Positions 1-9,456 of a DNA stretch of 34,683 nucleotides are shown one piece after another. The stretch covers positions 1 through 34,683 of the forward strand of contig JAKANM010000003.1 in the NCBI GenBank assembly GCA_021812425.1, in the 5' to 3' direction. The notes below the pieces were generated by a model. The model searched no databases and had not been told where the DNA came from. It worked only from the letters and a program-made list of their open reading frames with translations. Position 1 is the first letter of the stretch, and every line of letters begins with the position of its first letter. The stretch is from a bacterium. Lineage in GTDB: Bacteria > Patescibacteriota > Patescibacteriia > Magasanikbacterales > GWA2-37-8. The position numbers and the translations under genes are program-made.

Positions 1-754
1 CGGCAAAACCGAACTGGCCAAGACTCTAGCCAAAGTCCTCTATGCCAATCCGGAAGCCTTTATAAAATTAGACATGAGTGAATTCAACGAAAGTTTTGGC
101 GTCTCGAAACTTCTCGGCTCGCCGGCGGGATATATCGGATACAAAGAAAGCAACCATTTTACCGACAAAATAAAACTAAACCCGCACTGTGTGGTTCTGT
201 TTGATGAGATTGATAAAGCGCATCGCGATATTGTCAGGTTACTGCTACAAATTTTGGAGAACGGACAAATTACCGATTCGACCGGCAAAACTGTCTCGCT
301 TCGCCACGCTGTTATTATTCTTACCACTTCCTACGGCTCCGAAGAAATGAAAAAAAATGCTTTTGGCTTTGGAAACGCGGCCGTCAACGCCAAAGAAACC
401 AGACAGCGTCTTGTCGACAAACTCAAAGAATATTTTTCACCTGAAGTTATCAACCGGCTTGATCGCATCTGCTTCTTCAATACGCTGGATGCAGTTACGC
501 TTCAGAAACTCGCCGAACTCGAACTCAAACGTTTCAACGAACAGCTCCGCCATTACCACACTTCAATTTCTACCGACAACAAAGTCTTGGAGTGGGTCGT
601 CTCGCAAATTCCGGGAGCGAAAAGCGGCGCGCGCGAGGTGCGACAATTTATTCGCGAGCAAGTGGAAGGATTAATGACCGAAATTATCCTCCGAAAAAAA
701 GTAAAAAATAATTATCTGCTGACAGTCAGTGATAATGCTTTACTAGTTAAATAA
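1..754 (+). CDS. clpC: Clp protease ATP-binding subunit (ClpC/ClpA type), C-terminal AAA+ domain; 5' end lies outside the window
   Basis: Frame open from base 2: GKTELAKTLA (Walker A end), IKLDMSEF, GSPAGYIGY pore loop, VVLFDEIDKAH (Walker B), LLQILENG, FSPEVINRLD, GAREVR. An AFGF motif sits at the position of the ClpP-docking loop, favouring ClpC over ClpB. Confidence 0.85.
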   Translation, partial: GKTELAKTLAKVLYANPEAFIKLDMSEFNESFGVSKLLGSPAGYIGYKESNHFTDKIKLNPHCVVLFDEIDKAHRDIVRLLLQILENGQITDSTGKTVSLRHAVIILTTSYGSEEMKKNAFGFGNAAVNAKETRQRLVDKLKEYFSPEVINRLDRICFFNTLDAVTLQKLAELELKRFNEQLRHYHTSISTDNKVLEWVVSQIPGAKSGAREVRQFIREQVEGLMTEIILRKKVKNNYLLTVSDNALLVK

Positions 755-1473
755 TGTCTATTATGGCCGAAGGAGACCAAGCCATGACAAACCCACCAGG
801 CCTCGCCGCGAACGATCAAAGCGCGGTGGCTTCTGACCTCATGAAGGGTGATATTTCCGGCGATATAACATCGGTCTCAAAAAGGTCCGCTGGTCCGCAA
901 GCAGAAGTCGGAGAAGGCCAGCAACAAAATATCCAAACAAGCCTCGGCGCCGAAAGACAACGTCTACAGCAAATTCAAAGAGCGGAAGCAAAACTTACCG
1001 GAGAAGGAGCGGGGGCGGAAGCAGGCGGCAAGCTTTTTGGCGGCATAACCGGCGTGATTTTACAAAAAATCCCCGGGGTCGGCATGCTGATAAACAGATT
1101 TAAAAAATCCGCCGATTTAGAAAGTAAAATCAAGACACTTGAAAAAATGAAACGACGTTTAAAACTGGCGAAAACTACAGCGGCCATTGTCGATGCGATC
1201 AGACGATGGTCAGAGGCGGTCGCGGCGAGTAGCGAAACGATTGTCATCCCAATTTTTTTGGTGATCGGTTTCATCCCGTGGGTGATGTTCAGCGTCATCT
1301 TTGATCTTGGTCCGACCGCAAAAACGATTAACCAAGTTACAAAAAAAGCCGACAAAACGTTGTCGATGCTAAAAAAACTTGTCCAACAAAATGCGCAACG
1401 AAAAGCGGCGCTGAATGATCTAAGAGGAGCAGAAATTTCCGCCGCGCGTGAACAAGTTGAAAATGCCGCGTAA
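754..1473 (+). CDS. Hypothetical membrane-associated protein (Q/G/A-rich N-terminus, helical/coiled-coil segments, one long hydrophobic stretch)
   Basis: 239-aa ORF whose ATG overlaps the clpC stop (TAATG). Hydrophobic segment TIVIPIFLVIGFIPWVMFSVIF lies between Lys-rich helices. No family recognised. Confidence 0.75.
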   Translation: MSIMAEGDQAMTNPPGLAANDQSAVASDLMKGDISGDITSVSKRSAGPQAEVGEGQQQNIQTSLGAERQRLQQIQRAEAKLTGEGAGAEAGGKLFGGITGVILQKIPGVGMLINRFKKSADLESKIKTLEKMKRRLKLAKTTAAIVDAIRRWSEAVAASSETIVIPIFLVIGFIPWVMFSVIFDLGPTAKTINQVTKKADKTLSMLKKLVQQNAQRKAALNDLRGAEISAAREQVENAA

Positions 1474-1510
1474 TTTTTAAGTAAATGTATATATTTGAAA
1501 TTTTTCGTCT

Positions 1511-2743
1511 ATGAACCCCACCCTCAAACGCTTCCTCCTCATCGTCGGCCTCCTAGGTATTGCTTTTGTGATTAGCTTCGCGCTCTATAATGTTTTCAAA
1601 AAAGGACAGCCAGGAGCGCCTACTCAGCCGGGCGGTATCGGTCCTGGAGGTGTACCGAGTGGAATTTTACCAGGCGCTGGTTTTCGCGCCACCACTACCG
1701 GGGGCGAGGGCGTAAGCGGACCAGGAATACTGCCAAGCGCGAATATTGTTATCGGTTCTGCCAATGAAAATTATTATCGTCCGGCGGCCGTCACCAAACT
1801 CATCTCCGAAAACGCGGTCTTTCCTTCTCTATCAAACGGAAGCGTCCGCTTTCACAACGAAACTGACGGTAAATTTTATTCCCTGGGACCGGACGGAAAA
1901 ATGCGATCGCTAAGCGACCAAGTATTCTATAATGTCCAGAATGTCGTCTGGGCAAAAACTGCCAACAAAGCGGTCATAGAATATCCCGACAACAGCAAGA
2001 TAATTTACAATTTTGAAACCAAAACTCAGACTACACTCCCGAAACACTGGGAGGATTTTAGCTTCTCCCCTGATAGCACAGAAATAGCCGCCAAGAGCCT
2101 CGGTCTAGCGCCGGAAAACCGCTGGCTTATTACCACCAAAGACGATGGCTCAGGCGCTAAACTTATCGAACCGCTCGGCAATAACGCCGACAAAGTAACC
2201 ATGGATTGGTCGCCAAGCCGACAAACGGTTGCCTTCTCCCAAACCGGCGAAGCGCAAGGCGCTGACCGCAAAGAAATTTTGTTCCTCGGATTAAATGGTG
2301 AGAATTTCAAATCTATTATAGTTGAAGGTCTTGATTTCCAACCGCAATGGTCGCCCACCGGGCAAAAATTGCTTTATAGCGTCGACAGCGCGCGTAGCGA
2401 CTTCAAACCGGAACTCTGGATCGTAAATTCCTATGGAGATAATATTGGCGCGGGCCGTCAGCTTCTGCAGGTAAACACCTGGGCCAAAAAATGCGCTTTC
2501 GCCGATGACAGTACGCTCATTTGCGGGGTACCGCGGTCTCTCCCTGAGGGCGCTGGTATGTCACCCGCCATCGCAGCCGATACTCCCGACGATCTCTACC
2601 GGATCGACATCAAGACCGGCATTCGGACCCCCCTGCCGCTCGACAGGAACTACACGATTGATTCTATTTCATACGATGCCACCGGCCGAAAAGTCATTTT
2701 CACCGACCACCATCAAACTGGCGCATTTCAGGTAGCTCTCTAA
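1511..2743 (+). CDS. Membrane-anchored beta-propeller protein (TolB/PD40-like repeats)
   Basis: N-terminal TM (FLLIVGLLGIAFVISFALY), G/P/T-rich linker, and periodic blade motifs VVWAKT, FSFSPDS, DWSPSR, PQWSPTG, ISYDATG. Confidence 0.75.
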   Translation: MNPTLKRFLLIVGLLGIAFVISFALYNVFKKGQPGAPTQPGGIGPGGVPSGILPGAGFRATTTGGEGVSGPGILPSANIVIGSANENYYRPAAVTKLISENAVFPSLSNGSVRFHNETDGKFYSLGPDGKMRSLSDQVFYNVQNVVWAKTANKAVIEYPDNSKIIYNFETKTQTTLPKHWEDFSFSPDSTEIAAKSLGLAPENRWLITTKDDGSGAKLIEPLGNNADKVTMDWSPSRQTVAFSQTGEAQGADRKEILFLGLNGENFKSIIVEGLDFQPQWSPTGQKLLYSVDSARSDFKPELWIVNSYGDNIGAGRQLLQVNTWAKKCAFADDSTLICGVPRSLPEGAGMSPAIAADTPDDLYRIDIKTGIRTPLPLDRNYTIDSISYDATGRKVIFTDHHQTGAFQVAL

Positions 2744-2747
2744 CCTT

Positions 2748-3398
2748 ATGACATTTACCAACCGAAAACTCTTCGCTATCCTTCTTATTCTAACGACCAT
2801 CATCGGCCTCCTGCTTTGGAGAGAAATTAGAAATTTTGAGTCAATCACAACTTCCGCCTCGACCGAACCCCTCATCGCCGACAATAGCACTCCGCTCGAT
2901 ATTTCTTCCTCCGACCAAAGCCTGAATCCCGGCGGGCAACTAATCGTCGTCGAATACCAAGACCTAGGAAATTCTAAAGCAAAAATCCTGCATCAAGAGC
3001 TAACCAGTTTTGCGGAAAAAAATCCTGGCGTTCGTCTTGTTTTCAAACACGCGCCGATCGCGCATTTATTTTCTGACGGCGTCCTCGCCCACAAAGCCGC
3101 CTACTGCGCCGGATTACAGCATAAACTATGGTCATTTTTGGATAATTTGATTTCACGCGACTACGATCTGCGTGAGTCCGGAGTCCAAAAAGCGGCGGAG
3201 GAAACCGGACTTAACCTGCCTTTGTGGTCAACCTGTCTTGCGTCGGAAAATACCGCCGCTGCCATCAAAAAAGATTACGATGAGGCGAAAAGCCTTGAGC
3301 TTGGCGAGCCCCCATTAATTTTCATTAACAATAAAAAATTAAATACGAAACTTGATATAAATATTTCCGACTTGCTCTCGACCTTAATTGCCAAATAG
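2748..3398 (+). CDS. Membrane-anchored DsbA/BdbD-like thioredoxin-fold protein without the CxxC active site
   Basis: N-terminal TM; IVVEYQD, VRLVFKHAP, AHKAAYCAGLQHKLW, W-x-x-CL and AKSLELGEPPLIFINN follow the DsbA pattern, but the CxxC position reads NSKA. Confidence 0.8.
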   Translation: MTFTNRKLFAILLILTTIIGLLLWREIRNFESITTSASTEPLIADNSTPLDISSSDQSLNPGGQLIVVEYQDLGNSKAKILHQELTSFAEKNPGVRLVFKHAPIAHLFSDGVLAHKAAYCAGLQHKLWSFLDNLISRDYDLRESGVQKAAEETGLNLPLWSTCLASENTAAAIKKDYDEAKSLELGEPPLIFINNKKLNTKLDINISDLLSTLIAK

Positions 3399-3400
3399 CT

Positions 3401-4891
3401 ATGAAACGTCTTATATTTTTTATTCTTTGCATCGGATTGGTGATTTTTTATCGACCCCAATCCGTTTTCGCGGGATCATGTAAGTGCGATAAGAGCTTCA
3501 CGAACGTCGATAATACTACTATCCCGGATGCCTGCTACCCAAACCCCGTAAATAACGCTTCAGAATGCGCCGGCCGATTGGTCGATTCAAGCAGTGGCGA
3601 ATATATGAATTGTGTTTTCTGCTCTGACAATACGTGCTCGCTAGCCAGTTGTGAAGATTATGGACTTACTTCCGGCGGCGTAAATTGTACGACCGAAGAT
3701 AATTGCCGACAGATGGTCGGAAGCCCAACCGGAGTGGCCAAATGCCTGCACAGCGTCTGCTATTTCGATGCGGCGGCGCTGGCGTCAAAAGATAACCAAA
3801 CCGGCGTCCTTGGGATCGGTGAGGTGGTGAAGGTAAGCAATCCCACGCTGGAAATAAAAATCCCCGGACTAAATTTTAAGCCAATCGATCAAACGGTTGA
3901 TTCGGAGGGTTACCTCCATCTTACTTCTCTTGCCGAATACCTCGCCGCAGTTTATAAATTCGCGCTCGCGGCGGCGAGTATCGTGGCGGCGATCATGATC
4001 GTGGTTAACGGCTTTCGTATTTCGATATCGGCCGGCGGTGAACAAAAAAATATCGGGGTCAAACATATAACCCAAGCCGTCATCGGACTCGTGATCCTTT
4101 GGAGTTCATATTTTTTGTTCTATACGATCAATCCCGAGTTGGTGCAATTTAAGGCGCTGAAGGTTAGATTTATAAAACCAATAATTCTCCCCGAGATAGA
4201 AACAAGTATTTCAACTGGAAACGCCACTACTGGCCCTGCCCCCACTGGCTTAATGCAAATTCCGGACTCAACCCTTATTACCAACAAAGGAACTCAGCAG
4301 GCCTTGCCTGACGTTGTAACTGCTTTGCAAAGAGCCGTAGATGATTCTCAGGTAAAAATAATCGTTAGTAGTAGCTTCCGACCAGCATCAACTCAATACT
4401 CTCTGATGCAAAGCATGTGCGGCTGCCCAGCTGAATCGACCCTCGCACCTAACCTAAGTATGTCGGCGTTGAGCGCGCTCTGCACGTCATGTAGCGGCTG
4501 CCAGGCTGCCTGCGACTTAACTAGAGTAAACGGAGTTTTTCAGGCGCCGGCTATGAGCCACTTTGCCGGCAACACCGTCGATATCGCTTCCGCCGCGGAA
4601 GGCTCCAAGACAAATTGCACTGGCTCGGATGCTAACGTTAATTCAAGTATTAATGTTGTTATGACTCCGACCACAATTAACAATGCAACAACCTGCGTTC
4701 CTGAAGAGCAACAAAAATTAATCAAAGCGATGTTAAATAATGATTTTTGCGTGGGACTAAAAGCTAGCAGTCTGAGCTTGCGAGAATCCTGGCACTTTGA
4801 ATATACTAAAGCAGGCCTACCGGTTTCTGGCTTCTGCACTAACGATCTCAACGATGCAAATCTGCAAAAATTATATTACGTTCAAAATTGA
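3401..4891 (+). CDS. Signal peptide + Cys-rich domain + VirB2/TrbC-like pilin hairpin + M15-family (VanY-like) Zn peptidase fusion
   Basis: Signal peptide ending VFA. Two-TM segment LAEYLAAVYKFALAAASIVAAIMIVVNGF-SAGG-KHITQAVIGLVILWSSYFLFYTINPEL. C-terminal motifs SSFR-x4-Q, H-x6-D (SHFAGNTVD) and ExxH (ESWH). Confidence 0.8.
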   Translation: MKRLIFFILCIGLVIFYRPQSVFAGSCKCDKSFTNVDNTTIPDACYPNPVNNASECAGRLVDSSSGEYMNCVFCSDNTCSLASCEDYGLTSGGVNCTTEDNCRQMVGSPTGVAKCLHSVCYFDAAALASKDNQTGVLGIGEVVKVSNPTLEIKIPGLNFKPIDQTVDSEGYLHLTSLAEYLAAVYKFALAAASIVAAIMIVVNGFRISISAGGEQKNIGVKHITQAVIGLVILWSSYFLFYTINPELVQFKALKVRFIKPIILPEIETSISTGNATTGPAPTGLMQIPDSTLITNKGTQQALPDVVTALQRAVDDSQVKIIVSSSFRPASTQYSLMQSMCGCPAESTLAPNLSMSALSALCTSCSGCQAACDLTRVNGVFQAPAMSHFAGNTVDIASAAEGSKTNCTGSDANVNSSINVVMTPTTINNATTCVPEEQQKLIKAMLNNDFCVGLKASSLSLRESWHFEYTKAGLPVSGFCTNDLNDANLQKLYYVQN

Positions 4892-4897
4892 TCCGGC

Positions 4898-6229
4898 ATG
4901 AACAAGAATGTTTCAATATTCAAATGTTCCTCCTGCGACGCTCAGTATTCCAAATGGACTGGGCGTTGTTTAGAATGTGGAAAATGGGGAACTATCGTTG
5001 AAAGCTCAAAACCCCAATCGCCAATTTCCAAATCCACCGTACCGGCGGCGAAGACAGTGAAACTTGAAGAAATAAAAAGTGAAGGTGTTAGACGAGTGAA
5101 AACTAATATCGATGAACTTGATCGGGTGTTGGGCGGCGGTCTAGTCCCCGGCAGTCTAATCCTGCTTGGCGGCGAACCTGGAATCGGTAAATCCACTCTG
5201 ACGATCGAAATGGCTGCGAAGATTCAGAATGCGCTGGTAATTTCCGGCGAAGAATCAATCGGCCAAATAAAACTTCGCGCTGATCGGCTCAACATAAATT
5301 CCAAAAGTCTTGAACTAGCCAATGAAACAAACATCGAAATAATAATCGCGACGATTCTCACTAAAAAACCAACGCTCGTGATCATCGACTCAATGCAAAC
5401 GATTTTTTCTGCTGAAGTCGAGGGCGAAGCCGGCTCCCCCACCCAGATCCGGGCCTGCACCACCAAGCTCCTCGAAGCAGTGAAACCAACCCAGACCACC
5501 GCTGTCATCGTCGGCCATGTCACCAAAGAAGGAATAGTCGCCGGACCAAAAACCCTCGAACATTTGGTCGACACGGTTGTATATCTCGAAGGCGACCGCC
5601 ATCATTTTTATCGAATCCTTAGAACCGTAAAAAATCGCTTCGGATCAACCGATGAAGTCGGGGTATTCCAGATGCATGAAGGCGGTCTCCGCGAAGTCAA
5701 AAATCCTTCCGCTGCTTTTCTCTCGGAACGAGGAGAAAATCTTCCAGGAAATGTTCTGACCTGTCTGATCGAGGGTACGCGCCCCCTCATTGTCGAAGTG
5801 CAGGCGTTGGTTACCAAAACGGCCTTTGGCTATCCGACTCGCAAAGCCAGTGGTTTTGATTTGAACCGTCTGCACGTTCTAATAGCCGTGCTACAAAAAC
5901 GCGCGAAGCTCCAGCTCGAAAGCTATGATATCCATATCAACATTGCCGGCGGACTTACGGCCGACGAACCAGCCGCTGACCTCGCCATTGCTCTCGCCAT
6001 CGCTAGCGCCTACAAAGACAAACCGCTCGGCGGCGACCTCGTCGTCTTCGGAGAAATTGGACTTGGCGGCGAGGTCCGACCAATCGTTCAAGTAGAAAAA
6101 AGAATAAAGGAATGTGAACAGCTGGGTATGAAACGAATTTTAACCAATACCGGATCAAAAAAACTTACCTCGTCTAAACTTAAAATCCTGGACATCAAAA
6201 ATATCCAGGAGATAATCAAACACACCTAA
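4898..6229 (+). CDS. radA: DNA repair protein RadA/Sms
   Basis: C4 zinc finger CSSC/CLEC, Walker A GEPGIGKST, KNRFG motif, Lon-like C-terminal domain with GEIGLGGEVR. Confidence 0.97.
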   Translation: MNKNVSIFKCSSCDAQYSKWTGRCLECGKWGTIVESSKPQSPISKSTVPAAKTVKLEEIKSEGVRRVKTNIDELDRVLGGGLVPGSLILLGGEPGIGKSTLTIEMAAKIQNALVISGEESIGQIKLRADRLNINSKSLELANETNIEIIIATILTKKPTLVIIDSMQTIFSAEVEGEAGSPTQIRACTTKLLEAVKPTQTTAVIVGHVTKEGIVAGPKTLEHLVDTVVYLEGDRHHFYRILRTVKNRFGSTDEVGVFQMHEGGLREVKNPSAAFLSERGENLPGNVLTCLIEGTRPLIVEVQALVTKTAFGYPTRKASGFDLNRLHVLIAVLQKRAKLQLESYDIHINIAGGLTADEPAADLAIALAIASAYKDKPLGGDLVVFGEIGLGGEVRPIVQVEKRIKECEQLGMKRILTNTGSKKLTSSKLKILDIKNIQEIIKHT

Positions 6230-6230
6230 A

Positions 6231-8282
6231 CTACTCAAGGTGCACCGATTCTTTCCACTCTTTCATTTTTTTGACGAGTTCCGGAAATTCTAAAAGTTGA
6301 GATAAAATCACTCGCGCCGACTCACGGGCTTTTTTTATTAAAGCAGTGTCGGAAAGTTTAGCGAGGCGGAGCTGCATCATTCCACTCTGAGTAGTCCCAT
6401 AGACTTCCCCGGGGCCACGCAACTCCAAATCTTTTTCAGCCAGTTCAAAACCATTTTGATGTTTTTCAAAAAAACGCAGCCGCTCCAGGGTCCTGCTCGA
6501 ACCGTTATCCGAAAAAACAAAACAATAAGACTGCTTGTCACTGCGACCGACTCGGCCTCTAAACTGATGTAACTGCGCAAGACCAAACCGATCCGCGCCT
6601 TCGACCATCATGACAGTCGCGTTCGGCACATCCACCCCAACCTCGATCACCGAAGTCGAAACCAAAATATCATTTTCCTTATTTTTAAACGCCGCCATTA
6701 TTTTTTCTTTTTCTTCACCTTTCATTTTTCCATGCAAATAACTTACGCGCATCTCTGGAAAAATCTGCTCGGATAATTTTTTGTATTCGGTGAGGACGGA
6801 TTTTTTTTCGATCTGCGCGGAAGGGTTGTCTTCTATCAACGGACAAACGACGAATACTTGCCCACCTTTTTCTACTTCTTTACGGATAAACTCATACGCC
6901 TTGTCGCGATTTCGCGGCTCGACGATCCTGGTCGTGACCGGCTTTCTGCCAGGCGGCATCTCTCTGATGATCGAGACATCAAGATCTCCGTAGACCATCA
7001 GGGCGAGCGAACGCGGGATCGGTGTCGCCGTCATGCTGAGAAAATGCACTCCACGTCCTTTTTCTTTGATTACCTTACGTTGTAAAACTCCAAAGCGATG
7101 CTGTTCATCCACGACCGCGAGGCCAACATTTTTAAATTCGACCCCTTCGGAAAGCAAAGCATGTGTCCCCAGGATCACATTCGCCTCGCCTGAGGTGATT
7201 ATTTTTTGCAGTTCTTTTTTTGAGACCTCGGACCTCTCCTGATTTTTAAATATTAAATGTTGTGAACGAGTAAACAAGGCTAGCGTCTGGTCGGGCAATA
7301 ATCTGCAAACCGAATCAAAATGCTGAAATGCCAAGATTTCCGTTGGCGCCATCATGATCCCCTGAAAACCGGAAAGGACGGCATTATAAAGAGCGACCGC
7401 GGCGACCACCGTCTTGCCGGACCCGACGTCGCCCGACAACAACCTGTTCATCGGCGCTTCTTCCGCAATATTTTTTAAAATTTCCCAGGCCGCGATTTTT
7501 TGATCCTTGGTGAGGATGAACAGCAAACCAGCCACAAACTTTTTAATTTCCTCCTCATGAAAAGTCAAAGCCGGAGCCCGAAGCACGGTCCGTTCATGGC
7601 GTGCGAGCTCCGTCTGCAGCTGGACTAAAAATAATTCATCAAACTTCAGACGTTCAGTCGCAGAATTAATTTGCGCGTCAGAATCCGGGAAATGAATTTG
7701 CTTTATCGCCTCTCCCAACGTGATAAGATTATTTTCTTTTTTAATTTTCTCCGGCAGCCAATCTACGAGATTGGACGCGGCCGGCAACGACTGCTCGACC
7801 AAAAATCGAACTTGCTTCTGCGTGATTCCTTCGGTAAGAGGATACATCGGCACAAGACGAGCAGTATGGATATTACGCCGTGAGGCCAATTCATAAGCGG
7901 GACTTACAAACTGCAGACCAAGCGAATCGCGTTTTACCACTCCGGAAATATAAACTTCGGTGCCGGTCTCAAGATTTTTTGTGAGGTACGGCTGATTAAA
8001 CCAAACTAATCTAATGCTCCCAGTCTCATCGGTAAGCAGCGCTTCAGTAAGACTACGTCGATTGCGAATACGACGATTGGCGATCAATTCGATTGCGCCT
8101 TTCACTGTGACCGCATCACCCTCCCGTAACTCCTTAATCGGCGCGACGCGGCTGAAATCCTCATAGCGAAAAGGGTAGTGATGAAGTAAATTATTAACTG
8201 TAAAAATGCCAAGCCGTTCCAATCTTTTGGCTGTGGTCTTTCCGACTTTGTTCAAAGCCTCAATTCGTGTTTCTAGGTTCAT
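6231..8282 (-). CDS. recG: ATP-dependent DNA helicase RecG
   Basis: Wedge domain WFNQPY, RLLSGDVGSGKT, VDEQHRFG, MTATPIPRSL, QLHQFRGRVGR, DLELRGPGE. Start is 8282 (MNLETRI) or 8300. Confidence 0.97.
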   Translation of the reverse strand: MNLETRIEALNKVGKTTAKRLERLGIFTVNNLLHHYPFRYEDFSRVAPIKELREGDAVTVKGAIELIANRRIRNRRSLTEALLTDETGSIRLVWFNQPYLTKNLETGTEVYISGVVKRDSLGLQFVSPAYELASRRNIHTARLVPMYPLTEGITQKQVRFLVEQSLPAASNLVDWLPEKIKKENNLITLGEAIKQIHFPDSDAQINSATERLKFDELFLVQLQTELARHERTVLRAPALTFHEEEIKKFVAGLLFILTKDQKIAAWEILKNIAEEAPMNRLLSGDVGSGKTVVAAVALYNAVLSGFQGIMMAPTEILAFQHFDSVCRLLPDQTLALFTRSQHLIFKNQERSEVSKKELQKIITSGEANVILGTHALLSEGVEFKNVGLAVVDEQHRFGVLQRKVIKEKGRGVHFLSMTATPIPRSLALMVYGDLDVSIIREMPPGRKPVTTRIVEPRNRDKAYEFIRKEVEKGGQVFVVCPLIEDNPSAQIEKKSVLTEYKKLSEQIFPEMRVSYLHGKMKGEEKEKIMAAFKNKENDILVSTSVIEVGVDVPNATVMMVEGADRFGLAQLHQFRGRVGRSDKQSYCFVFSDNGSSRTLERLRFFEKHQNGFELAEKDLELRGPGEVYGTTQSGMMQLRLAKLSDTALIKKARESARVILSQLLEFPELVKKMKEWKESVHLE

Positions 8283-8311
8283 AAACGCGACGTAGCCCAT
8301 ATAGCGAGCTT

Positions 8312-8862: not shown

Positions 8863-9369
8863 CTAATGAATTTTCAAAACTCTAGCTAAACGGTCAGAGA
8901 GCGGTTCCTCTTCGTGCTCTGTTTCTTCCATCAAAAACTGTTTGACATATTCCCGAATCGGACGCGGGTCATAGTCCAACAGAGGAATTTTCACACGAAA
9001 ACGAACGACATTTTTTAGGCGAAAATATAAATTTTTCACTTCAGGAGGGTTGTAGATCAACCAAAATCCGTCCAGCTCGCTGAAACGGTAAAACTTCCGG
9101 CCGATGATTATCCCGGTCTCGGTGATGCCAAAATATACTTCAATTGGCGGTTGCATCTCATGAACATACAACACAATGCCAAACAAAATAACTACCAGAG
9201 CAAATAAATAATTTGCGGTGATGAGAGCGTACGCGATCAGCAGTAAACTAAAAAGAATCATCAAAAAATACCAGCGGCGGCTACGATCGTACTGCTCATA
9301 TTCTTTAATCCGCCATTCAAATACCACGCGGCCGGTATTTACCTGTTCTTTGGTAAGATCCTTTGGCAT
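8863..9369 (-). CDS. Two-TM membrane protein with a C-terminal beta-rich domain (resembles the DUF5673/bacterial PH-like type), 168 aa
   Basis: The track ORF runs into tRNA-Val; the real start is ATG at 9369 (MPKDL), with AGGAG 6 nt upstream. Pattern W-x3-EY...RRWY, two TMs, GITETGIIIG, Y-x-F-x-E-L-x-x-FW. The family assignment is from recall. Confidence 0.75.
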   Translation of the reverse strand: MPKDLTKEQVNTGRVVFEWRIKEYEQYDRSRRWYFLMILFSLLLIAYALITANYLFALVVILFGIVLYVHEMQPPIEVYFGITETGIIIGRKFYRFSELDGFWLIYNPPEVKNLYFRLKNVVRFRVKIPLLDYDPRPIREYVKQFLMEETEHEEEPLSDRLARVLKIH

Positions 9370-9382
9370 ATTATTCTCCTTG

Positions 9383-9456
9383 TGGATGATACTGGATTTG
9401 AACCAGTGGCCTTTGCAATGTGAATGCAACGCTCTAACCAGCTGAGCTAATCATCC
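9383..9456 (-). tRNA. tRNA-Val(CAC)
   Basis: Minus strand GGATGAT/ATCATCC acceptor, GCTC/GAGC D arm, TTGCA-TT CAC AT-TGCAA anticodon arm, ACTGG-TTCAAAT-CCAGT T arm. CCA is not encoded. Confidence 0.95.

Follow-up and report, generated by a model that had tools for sequence, protein, structure and literature searches.

The window analyzed here is a 34,683-nucleotide stretch of DNA from an uncultured, ultra-small member of the Patescibacteria (GCA_021812425.1, JAKANM010000003.1) that makes up the entire contig C10 of genome G000 (742 kb, 55 contigs, 94% complete). Near its start, positions 754-4891 encode a variable membrane protein (gene X), a membrane-anchored β-propeller, a DsbA-fold protein, and a fusion of a VirB2-like pilin hairpin to a predicted zinc peptidase. 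We propose that these genes are the distal block of a Patescibacteria type IV secretion system (T4SS) locus, and that the block ends in a swappable, hairpin-borne, predicted wall hydrolase that would open peptidoglycan at host contact; we give this reading about an even chance. The block was likely separated from virB4 by a rearrangement. More tentatively, minor pilins on a conjugation-type pilus may carry wall-cutting enzyme heads that are swapped, through recombination at the hairpin, to match host peptidoglycan, with the propeller a core T4SS part across classes.

We compared gene order in 20 loci from the family of G000 and 40 from its class, up to 20 kb long and selected for long contigs, and also in 58 shorter family loci and 20 of 58 matches outside the class, mostly the stronger ones. 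Class orders were counted on 38 loci (L056 and L064, where the propeller was masked by the caller of open reading frames (ORFs), were omitted), and virB4 and clpC were placed by search on 66 well-assembled genomes (45 class, 21 family). A first-pass annotation of the window, which had proposed comparing gene neighborhoods, described the five genes from clpC through the fusion as a single unit. Order is indeed conserved across relatives, and it shows clpC to be a variable neighbor, so that the single five-gene unit does not hold. The genes that accompany the propeller are dsbA (20 of 20 family, 22 of 38 class, and 3 of 20 other-class loci); a pilin fusion (18 of 20 family loci, and adjacent in 34 of 38 class loci) or, outside the class, an adjacent pilin gene (13 of 20); radA downstream (19 of 20, 25 of 38, and 15 of 20, respectively); and recG downstream on the opposite strand (19 of 20, 36 of 38, and 13 of 20). 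In many relatives, prgI-trsD-virB4-p195 is followed by the propeller, which is often accompanied by DsbA and by at least one hairpin fusion. The virB4 cluster lay upstream of the propeller in 17 of 20 other-class loci, none of which had clpC there. Among the 38 class loci, the upstream neighbor was clpC in 15, the virB4 cluster in 11, and neither in 12.

In other relatives, the window family included, an inversion-like swap sets lemA-htpX-clpC upstream of the block. Nineteen of the 45 class genomes had virB4 within 8 kb upstream of the propeller on the same strand; none of these had clpC upstream on that strand, and in 12 clpC was downstream in the opposite orientation. Conversely, clpC lay within 8 kb upstream of the propeller in 16 class genomes; in 15 of these, virB4 was no more than 30 kb downstream, in the opposite orientation. 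Five of the remaining genomes had virB4 downstream in the opposite orientation with clpC not found, and five were uninformative. At the far junction, eight loci that lack virB4 upstream read comF<-p195 and three that have it there read comF<-clpC, with no mixed case seen; contig C13 of G000 reads virB4-p195-comF. An inversion between the p195|gene X and comF|clpC junctions would produce both the exchange of places and the far-junction pattern. Since the other classes show virB4 upstream, their loci suggest that this is the older arrangement. Because clpC and virB4 trade positions in the manner expected of an inversion, ClpC is likely a housekeeping bystander brought in by the rearrangement and not a functional part of the block, and its linkage to the block in Magasanikbacteria is likely an accident.

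The genome encodes a T4SS, so the complete lack of such machinery that would have refuted the first-pass annotation does not apply. Profile searches of G000 detected VirB4 (PF19044; P-loop_TraG) and PrgI on C13, where the order is a 2649-amino acid (aa) Cys-rich protein, a 922-aa protein called VirB6-like by inspection, two unknowns, prgI, a 228-aa gene in the TrsD position, virB4, p195, and comF. p195 is a 195-aa protein with a single transmembrane helix; our guess is that it is VirB8-like. T4SS_pilin (PF18895) gave 14 matches, 11 of them above the cut-off: the window gene, a pilin array on C41/C14, and another fusion gene, located on C46. Thus, apart from the window gene, all lie on contigs other than the window. 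As the first-pass annotation had remarked, there is no VirB4 among the window genes, and its proposed T4SS link is stronger than could be seen from the window, with the block lying inside the virB4 cluster in many relatives. The hydrolase fusion is encoded within that cluster in relatives but not in G000 or its family.

Three further features of this machinery were noted. The protein heading the virB4 cluster (G000:C13:12038-19987) looks secreted and contains 92 Cys. The array (G000:C41:11312-16081 and C14:1-2292), which lies away from virB4, consists of about ten VirB2-like pilins, of which several bear small Cys-rich extensions. At G000:C46:6663-9184 (L150), a second DsbA-fold gene (CxxS) is followed by a 557-aa pilin-hairpin fusion and then uvrA. 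The tail of the C46 fusion is Cys-rich and was assigned to no family.

The window fusion (3401-4891) contains hydrophobic stretches at aa 4-22, 184-202, and 223-241. T4SS_pilin matched aa 176-242 with 28 bits against a cut-off of 26.6, and the hairpin, modeled as two long helices, retains the pilin loop and is better conserved than any other part of the protein. The VanY match of the tail (15.5 bits) is below the Pfam cut-off of 25. Profile comparison of the tail with Pfam-labeled M15 tips of relatives gave a match probability of 98% (E 2e-14), and a Foldseek search with a model of the tail (predicted local distance difference test (pLDDT) 81) placed VanXY, VanY, and LdcB at ranks 1-12 (best E 5.3e-4, target TM score about 0.48). 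The M15 residues R327, H387, D394, E462, and H465, which correspond to the His, Asp, and His zinc ligands and the catalytic Glu and Arg, are intact. The pilin-peptidase of the first-pass annotation is therefore real, and its 22 Cys were counted correctly: there are 23, of which 22 follow the signal peptide.

The point of exchange lies at the 3′ end of the hairpin. DNA homology to G060, a genome of the same genus, covers 3799-4173 and then stops; the N-domain is 57% identical to the G060 copy. Contigs from public runs, which may be the source sample, bridge the junction between hairpin and peptidase without differences (X1 record 5, 3206-6258; X3 record 19, 984-4496). The contigs listed for four DNA runs from one study showed no tip of another kind, and no RNA run was listed.

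Relatives carry other enzymes at this position. Pfam families (E of 0.01 or lower) were assigned to the tips of 66 of the 135 fusions, namely M15 clan (27), C39-like (13), SLT (12), Amidase_2 (8), 3D (3), NlpC/P60 (2), and M23 (1). Some of the unmatched tips were placed by profile, with a cluster of 11 weakly SLT-like (probability 60%) and several joining M15, C39, or NlpC. We compared 12 hand-picked close pairs. In 11, tails were 18-31% identical, while hairpins were 61-94% identical; the twelfth pair shares its C39 tail (88%). L108 and L109, with 96% propeller identity, carry C39 and M15 tips, and L034 and L122, at 97%, carry NlpC/P60 and SLT-like tips; at this propeller identity, hairpins of pairs with unrelated tips are 94% alike. 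Although the window and G060 (94% propeller identity) both have M15 tips, these are 31% alike. On a propeller tree of 79 rows, 72 of them labeled, tip type changed 44 times compared to a shuffled mean of 48, and 18 of 500 shuffles were as low, a distribution close to random. Tandem copies within one genome were 81-99% alike across collar and hairpin in seven loci and 46-78% elsewhere, their tails were 17-31% alike, and some carry two different chemistries. With E values of 1e-30 or lower, a collar-hairpin profile retrieved 996 metagenome representatives. Among the 150 best of these 996, 123 had one hairpin plus a tail, and 117 of the 123 tails fell in the same tip clusters; four of the other six were M23 or glucosaminidase.

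Cluster U2 of the tips looked papain-like by eye from its conserved Cys/His motifs, and the Atlas gave no result for it. C39-like tips may cut the wall, judging from their papain fold. Sequence searches of the PDB with the window M15 tail, clusters U2 and U4, and p195 returned nothing significant. In a number of loci (L093:2348-4612, L096:2295-4628, L105, L135, L147, L158, and L159), fusions contain extra enzymes: a metallophosphoesterase that precedes the hairpin, or SLT together with a GDSL esterase.

These features suggest how the block might work. Because the fusion has a signal peptide and two transmembrane helices, both Cys-rich domains are predicted to lie outside the cell. The DsbA-fold neighbor may ancestrally have oxidized these domains; the window copy presumably cannot be a dithiol oxidase and would be a folding helper or a relic. 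The T4SS could treat the conserved hairpin as it would a minor pilin, or the hairpin could hold the enzyme beside the channel. The catalytic tip is exchanged right after the hairpin, and its turnover may track host wall chemistry.

Several findings weigh against a T4SS-linked hydrolase that acts on the host. Mur ligases and penicillin-binding proteins (PBPs) were present in 35 of 35 genomes tested, so an attempt to prove a host substrate from genomes without a wall of their own failed. VanY/LdcB-type enzymes usually trim stems and leave cross-links uncut, and would be a weak tool for breaching a wall. In the family (n=21), virB4 was 75-99 kb from the block in nine genomes, further in one, on another contig in ten, and not found in one; because of this distance, the T4SS link in the family consists of ancestral synteny only. 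As radA and recG are equally syntenic, synteny alone can reflect slow change in gene order. The RecG tree, from which three loci without recG were dropped, contained 8 changes of arrangement compared to 15.5 in shuffles, and its poor resolution does not establish a single inversion. At 496 aa, the fusion is far larger than the pilins of the array (about 125-205 aa) and is not a small subunit. No hydrolase family matched 69 of the 135 tips, some of which are Cys-rich only, and the largest unlabeled cluster (17 tips), which has conserved Cys and His, received no assignment from profile and PDB searches. Finally, no fusion is seen in the slot in 2 of 20 family loci, in L098, and in L091 and L114, the last two at contig edges. 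In the family loci L035, L041, and L098, radA comes after dsbA, and a pilin fusion was not called between them.

The same T4SS block could instead end in an autolysin with a VirB1-like role, cutting through the cell's own wall so that the channel or pilus can be assembled. Any chemistry that cuts the wall would then serve, and tips would drift by recombination at the hairpin. We regard this as the best of the alternatives and as rather unlikely. The cell's own wall is available as a substrate, because all 35 tested genomes have Mur ligases and PBPs; G000 itself encodes Mur ligases, an MraY-like protein, and three PBPs. A membrane tether suits a self substrate, and according to PMC12102498 most Patescibacteria have no recognizable VirB1 and other enzymes may substitute. 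However, swaps between near-identical genomes and the tandem carriage of two chemistries exceed what a fixed self substrate would need. Moreover, M15 tips persist in single-contig genomes without a detected D-Ala-D-Ala ligase (G109 and G234), although M15 includes L,D-carboxypeptidases. Overall, this ligase was not found in 25 of 74 genomes (including G074, G109, G161, G224, and G234), five of them single-contig, and all 25 have Mur ligases and PBPs. The ligase gene, ddl, was also not found in G000, where it probably fell in an assembly gap, since three of three genomes of the same genus have it.

A second alternative, which we consider improbable, is that in the window family the block is a T4SS-independent envelope operon and the hairpin a mere membrane anchor for a wall-maintenance peptidase. 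Consistent with this, none of the 20 family genomes with a detected virB4 has it near the block, VanY/LdcB carboxypeptidases are the closest match to the M15 fold, and a second pair of DsbA and hairpin fusion lies elsewhere, on C46. Against it, the hairpin keeps the pilin loop and is the best-conserved part of the fusion, VirB4 is retained in 65 of 66 genomes, and dispersal of T4SS genes is normal in G000, because the pilin array is likewise apart from virB4.

The least probable alternative, that a translationally coupled ClpC remodels an enzyme-tipped pilin chaperoned by a purpose-built, redox-dead DsbA, had been proposed in the first-pass annotation and draws on the short gaps, on clpC directly upstream of the block in 21 of 21 family genomes (20 of 20 long family loci), and on the recurrent loss of both DsbA Cys with the fold kept, but it is largely refuted by gene order: clpC is not upstream in 29 of 45 class genomes or in any of 20 other-class loci, and is never upstream where virB4 is. 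The five genes are co-oriented as annotated, the first open at its 5′ end, with gaps of -1, 37, 4, and 2 nt, and radA follows 6 nt further on. Such tight spacing is ordinary, because the median same-strand gap in G000 is 9 nt and 135 of 327 gaps are 6 nt or less (rough ORF calls). The -1 overlap of clpC and gene X is not conserved, with 5 and 1 nt in two genomes of the same genus. Moreover, ClpC is cytoplasmic, while the enzyme domains are predicted to be outside.

ClpC itself looks ordinary. The window encodes the last 250 of about 834 aa, a length taken from the G060 ortholog, and the N-terminal part was not assembled in G000. The G060 protein has Clp_N, two AAA modules, and the ClpP-docking FGF loop, which is also present in the window protein; the ClpP gene of G000 is on C24, and lemA and htpX often precede clpC in relatives' loci. 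A secretion-dedicated Clp ATPase (ClpV/TssH-like) was considered and rejected, as TIGR03345 scored 628 bits against a cut-off of 885 and clpC is never upstream of the block together with virB4. A third Clp ATPase of 911 aa (G000:C44:4246-6981) has N-terminal Cys motifs, two hydrophobic segments that probably anchor it in the membrane, and a first Walker B without the acidic pair.

The DsbA-fold protein lacks Cys at its active site, as annotated, and keeps the second Cys pair and the cis-Pro position. Among 99 orthologs, CxxC is intact in 70 (50 of 77 in the family and 20 of 22 in the class), 28 lack both Cys, and one is irregular; the second Cys pair and Pro are kept in all 99. The loss in the window copy is secondary, and losses are few and inherited, because the CxxC state changed 6 times on the propeller tree compared to 22 in shuffles. 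With CxxC so widely kept, and 16 of 38 class loci without dsbA beside the propeller, the earlier notion of a dedicated CxxC-less chaperone is weakened. Of the other DsbA-fold genes in G000, the paralog on C46 has CxxS and a third, remote match on C11 has CPYG. An MdbA/DsbA-like oxidase enriched in bacteria of the candidate phyla radiation (CPR), likewise a membrane-anchored thioredoxin fold, was proposed to fold pilins and has CxxC in 92% of its family, according to 10.1101/335083. The window copy, in contrast, lacks both active-site Cys, and a search of G000, which is 94% complete, did not detect VKOR.

PrgK, TraG, and TcpG are wall hydrolases that serve the VirB1 role in monoderm T4SSs. Like these enzymes and Southlakia SEML1_0006/0007, the hydrolase of the block is encoded downstream of virB4 in relatives' loci. 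As given in Tables S1 and S2 of PMC10633639, T4SS genes of Southlakia are essential in co-culture, including lysozyme/cysteine-proteinase and M15B genes beside virB4, which we count in favor of the host-contact reading; SEML1_0007 is essential and has a C-terminal Hedgehog/DD-peptidase (M15B) domain. The table rows list no PF18895 match for SEML1_0006/0007 and annotate no propeller, whereas the enzyme of the block is carried on a pilin hairpin, and at least seven Pfam-level families replace one another in its position. The Southlakia findings are also covered in a review (PMC12857230), and tubular structures, possibly T4SS pili, are described at a parasite-host interface in 10.64898/2026.06.21.733656. 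The hairpin of the window fusion belongs to the same family (PF18895) as the VirB2-like pilin arrays of Patescibacteria T4SSs (PMC12102498; PMC10633639), and like those systems G000 has VirB4, PrgI, a gene in the TrsD position, a VirB6-like gene, and a pilin array. The accessible text of PMC12102498, which covers the T4SS, pilin arrays, and the scarcity of VirB1, places ABY1 T4SS loci beside comF, recG, and radA, matching the arrangement found here. The pilins in that text are stand-alone, and it does not mention a pilin-hydrolase fusion, the propeller, DsbA, or the rearrangement. In our literature search, thin in its coverage of subscription papers, no paper turned up that describes pilin-hydrolase fusions, this propeller, or the rearrangement.

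The window tail resembles M15B VanY, VanXY, and LdcB in its fold and its Arg, His, Asp, Glu, and His residues, and differs in scoring below the Pfam VanY cut-off, in its Cys-rich insertions, and in its polytopic, pilin-type anchor. Nothing seen ties it to drug resistance. Polymorphic toxin systems (contact-dependent inhibition (CDI), Rhs, LXG) join a constant trafficking part to an exchangeable catalytic C-terminus. The fusion likewise has an exchangeable C-terminal catalytic domain at a fixed junction, but its assigned tips are wall enzymes, not nucleases or pore formers, and there is no orphan tip array. There is also no adjacent immunity gene, and radA follows the fusion directly in most loci. 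In the one species tested, epibiotic growth requires the Patescibacteria T4SS, and a recognizable VirB1 is mostly missing. As candidates for the crossing of cell walls, the block offers a family of wall enzymes tethered by pilin hairpins, and these could be produced and assayed with no need to culture the bacterium. The type of tip may give a clue to the hosts, and the conserved propeller adds to the T4SS parts list.

The propeller is a core gene, present in 98 of 100 genomes of the family and in 147 of 151 of the class, nearly always in single copy. Outside the class it was found in 58 of 187 genomes (72 of 201 phylum genomes), many of these matches being weak. Its named relatives are mostly from Ca. 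Magasanikbacteria and other Patescibacteria, many under generic labels, and we take them to belong to class ABY1. The protein consists of an N-terminal transmembrane helix (aa 8-26), a disordered G/P linker (aa 41-87), and the propeller (aa 88-410), which contains an invariant Cys pair, C328/C338 (alignment A1). The AlphaFold2 model was built from 56 sequences, and structure searches with it returned generic propellers only. In the nearest Atlas clusters, 19-31% of members carry PD40, and TolB was rejected (TIGR02800 28.8 bits, cut-off 343). We predict that the propeller is a structural or adhesive T4SS part. Complex prediction with the propeller (aa 85-410) and the collar-hairpin (122 aa), a partner of uncertain fold, scored 0.00 and is no evidence either way. 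In the other-class loci L153, L154, L158, L160, and L152, the propeller is duplicated, and in four loci it alternates with pilin-hairpin genes.

Gene X, which matched no Pfam or NCBIfam family, has a low-complexity N-terminus without a signal peptide and one hydrophobic stretch (aa 163-181) between Lys-rich helices. Its length ranges from 142 to 834 aa in 20 family loci, and most copies have a long hydrophobic stretch near the C-terminus. In virB4-type loci, a gene of similar appearance occupies the slot after the virB4-p195 pair. Profile comparison between the window family and other class loci did not rise above reversed controls, and virB4-type and clpC-type class loci matched weakly (probability 54%, E 1.3e-4).

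Features at the start of the window and the basis for each assignment
Feature	Position	Strand	Basis
clpC, 3′ third (second AAA+ domain, FGF loop)	2..754	+	Pfam AAA_2, ClpB_D2-small; cut by contig start
Gene X, variable membrane protein	754..1473	+	Hydropathy, slot survey; no Pfam or NCBIfam family
Membrane-anchored β-propeller	1511..2743	+	AlphaFold2 pLDDT 88 (mean); structure matches Z about 21, generic; no Pfam match
Membrane-anchored DsbA/MdbA-fold protein without CxxC	2748..3398	+	Pfam DSBA 26.8 bits (cut-off 25.6); transmembrane helix aa 9-27
Fusion: signal peptide and variable Cys-rich N-domain (aa 1-143)	3401..3829	+	Hydropathy aa 4-22; Cys positions
Fusion: conserved collar and VirB2-like two-helix hairpin (aa 144-258)	3830..4174	+	Pfam T4SS_pilin aa 176-242; alignment A7
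Fusion: linker and swappable M15 (VanY/LdcB-like) zinc peptidase, predicted	4175..4891	+	Pfam VanY (below cut-off); profile match, Foldseek, motifs
radA/sms	4898..6229	+	Pfam; conserved downstream neighbor
recG	6231..8300	-	ORF; named from sequence motifs, no library scan; convergent conserved neighbor

A scan for sigma-70 promoters was at chance level (7 sites compared to 7.4). Terminator-like sites numbered 16 compared to 9.7, and none was interpreted. Beyond recG, a small DUF5673-like membrane protein is encoded at 8863-9429 on the reverse strand and accompanies recG in most loci of the block.

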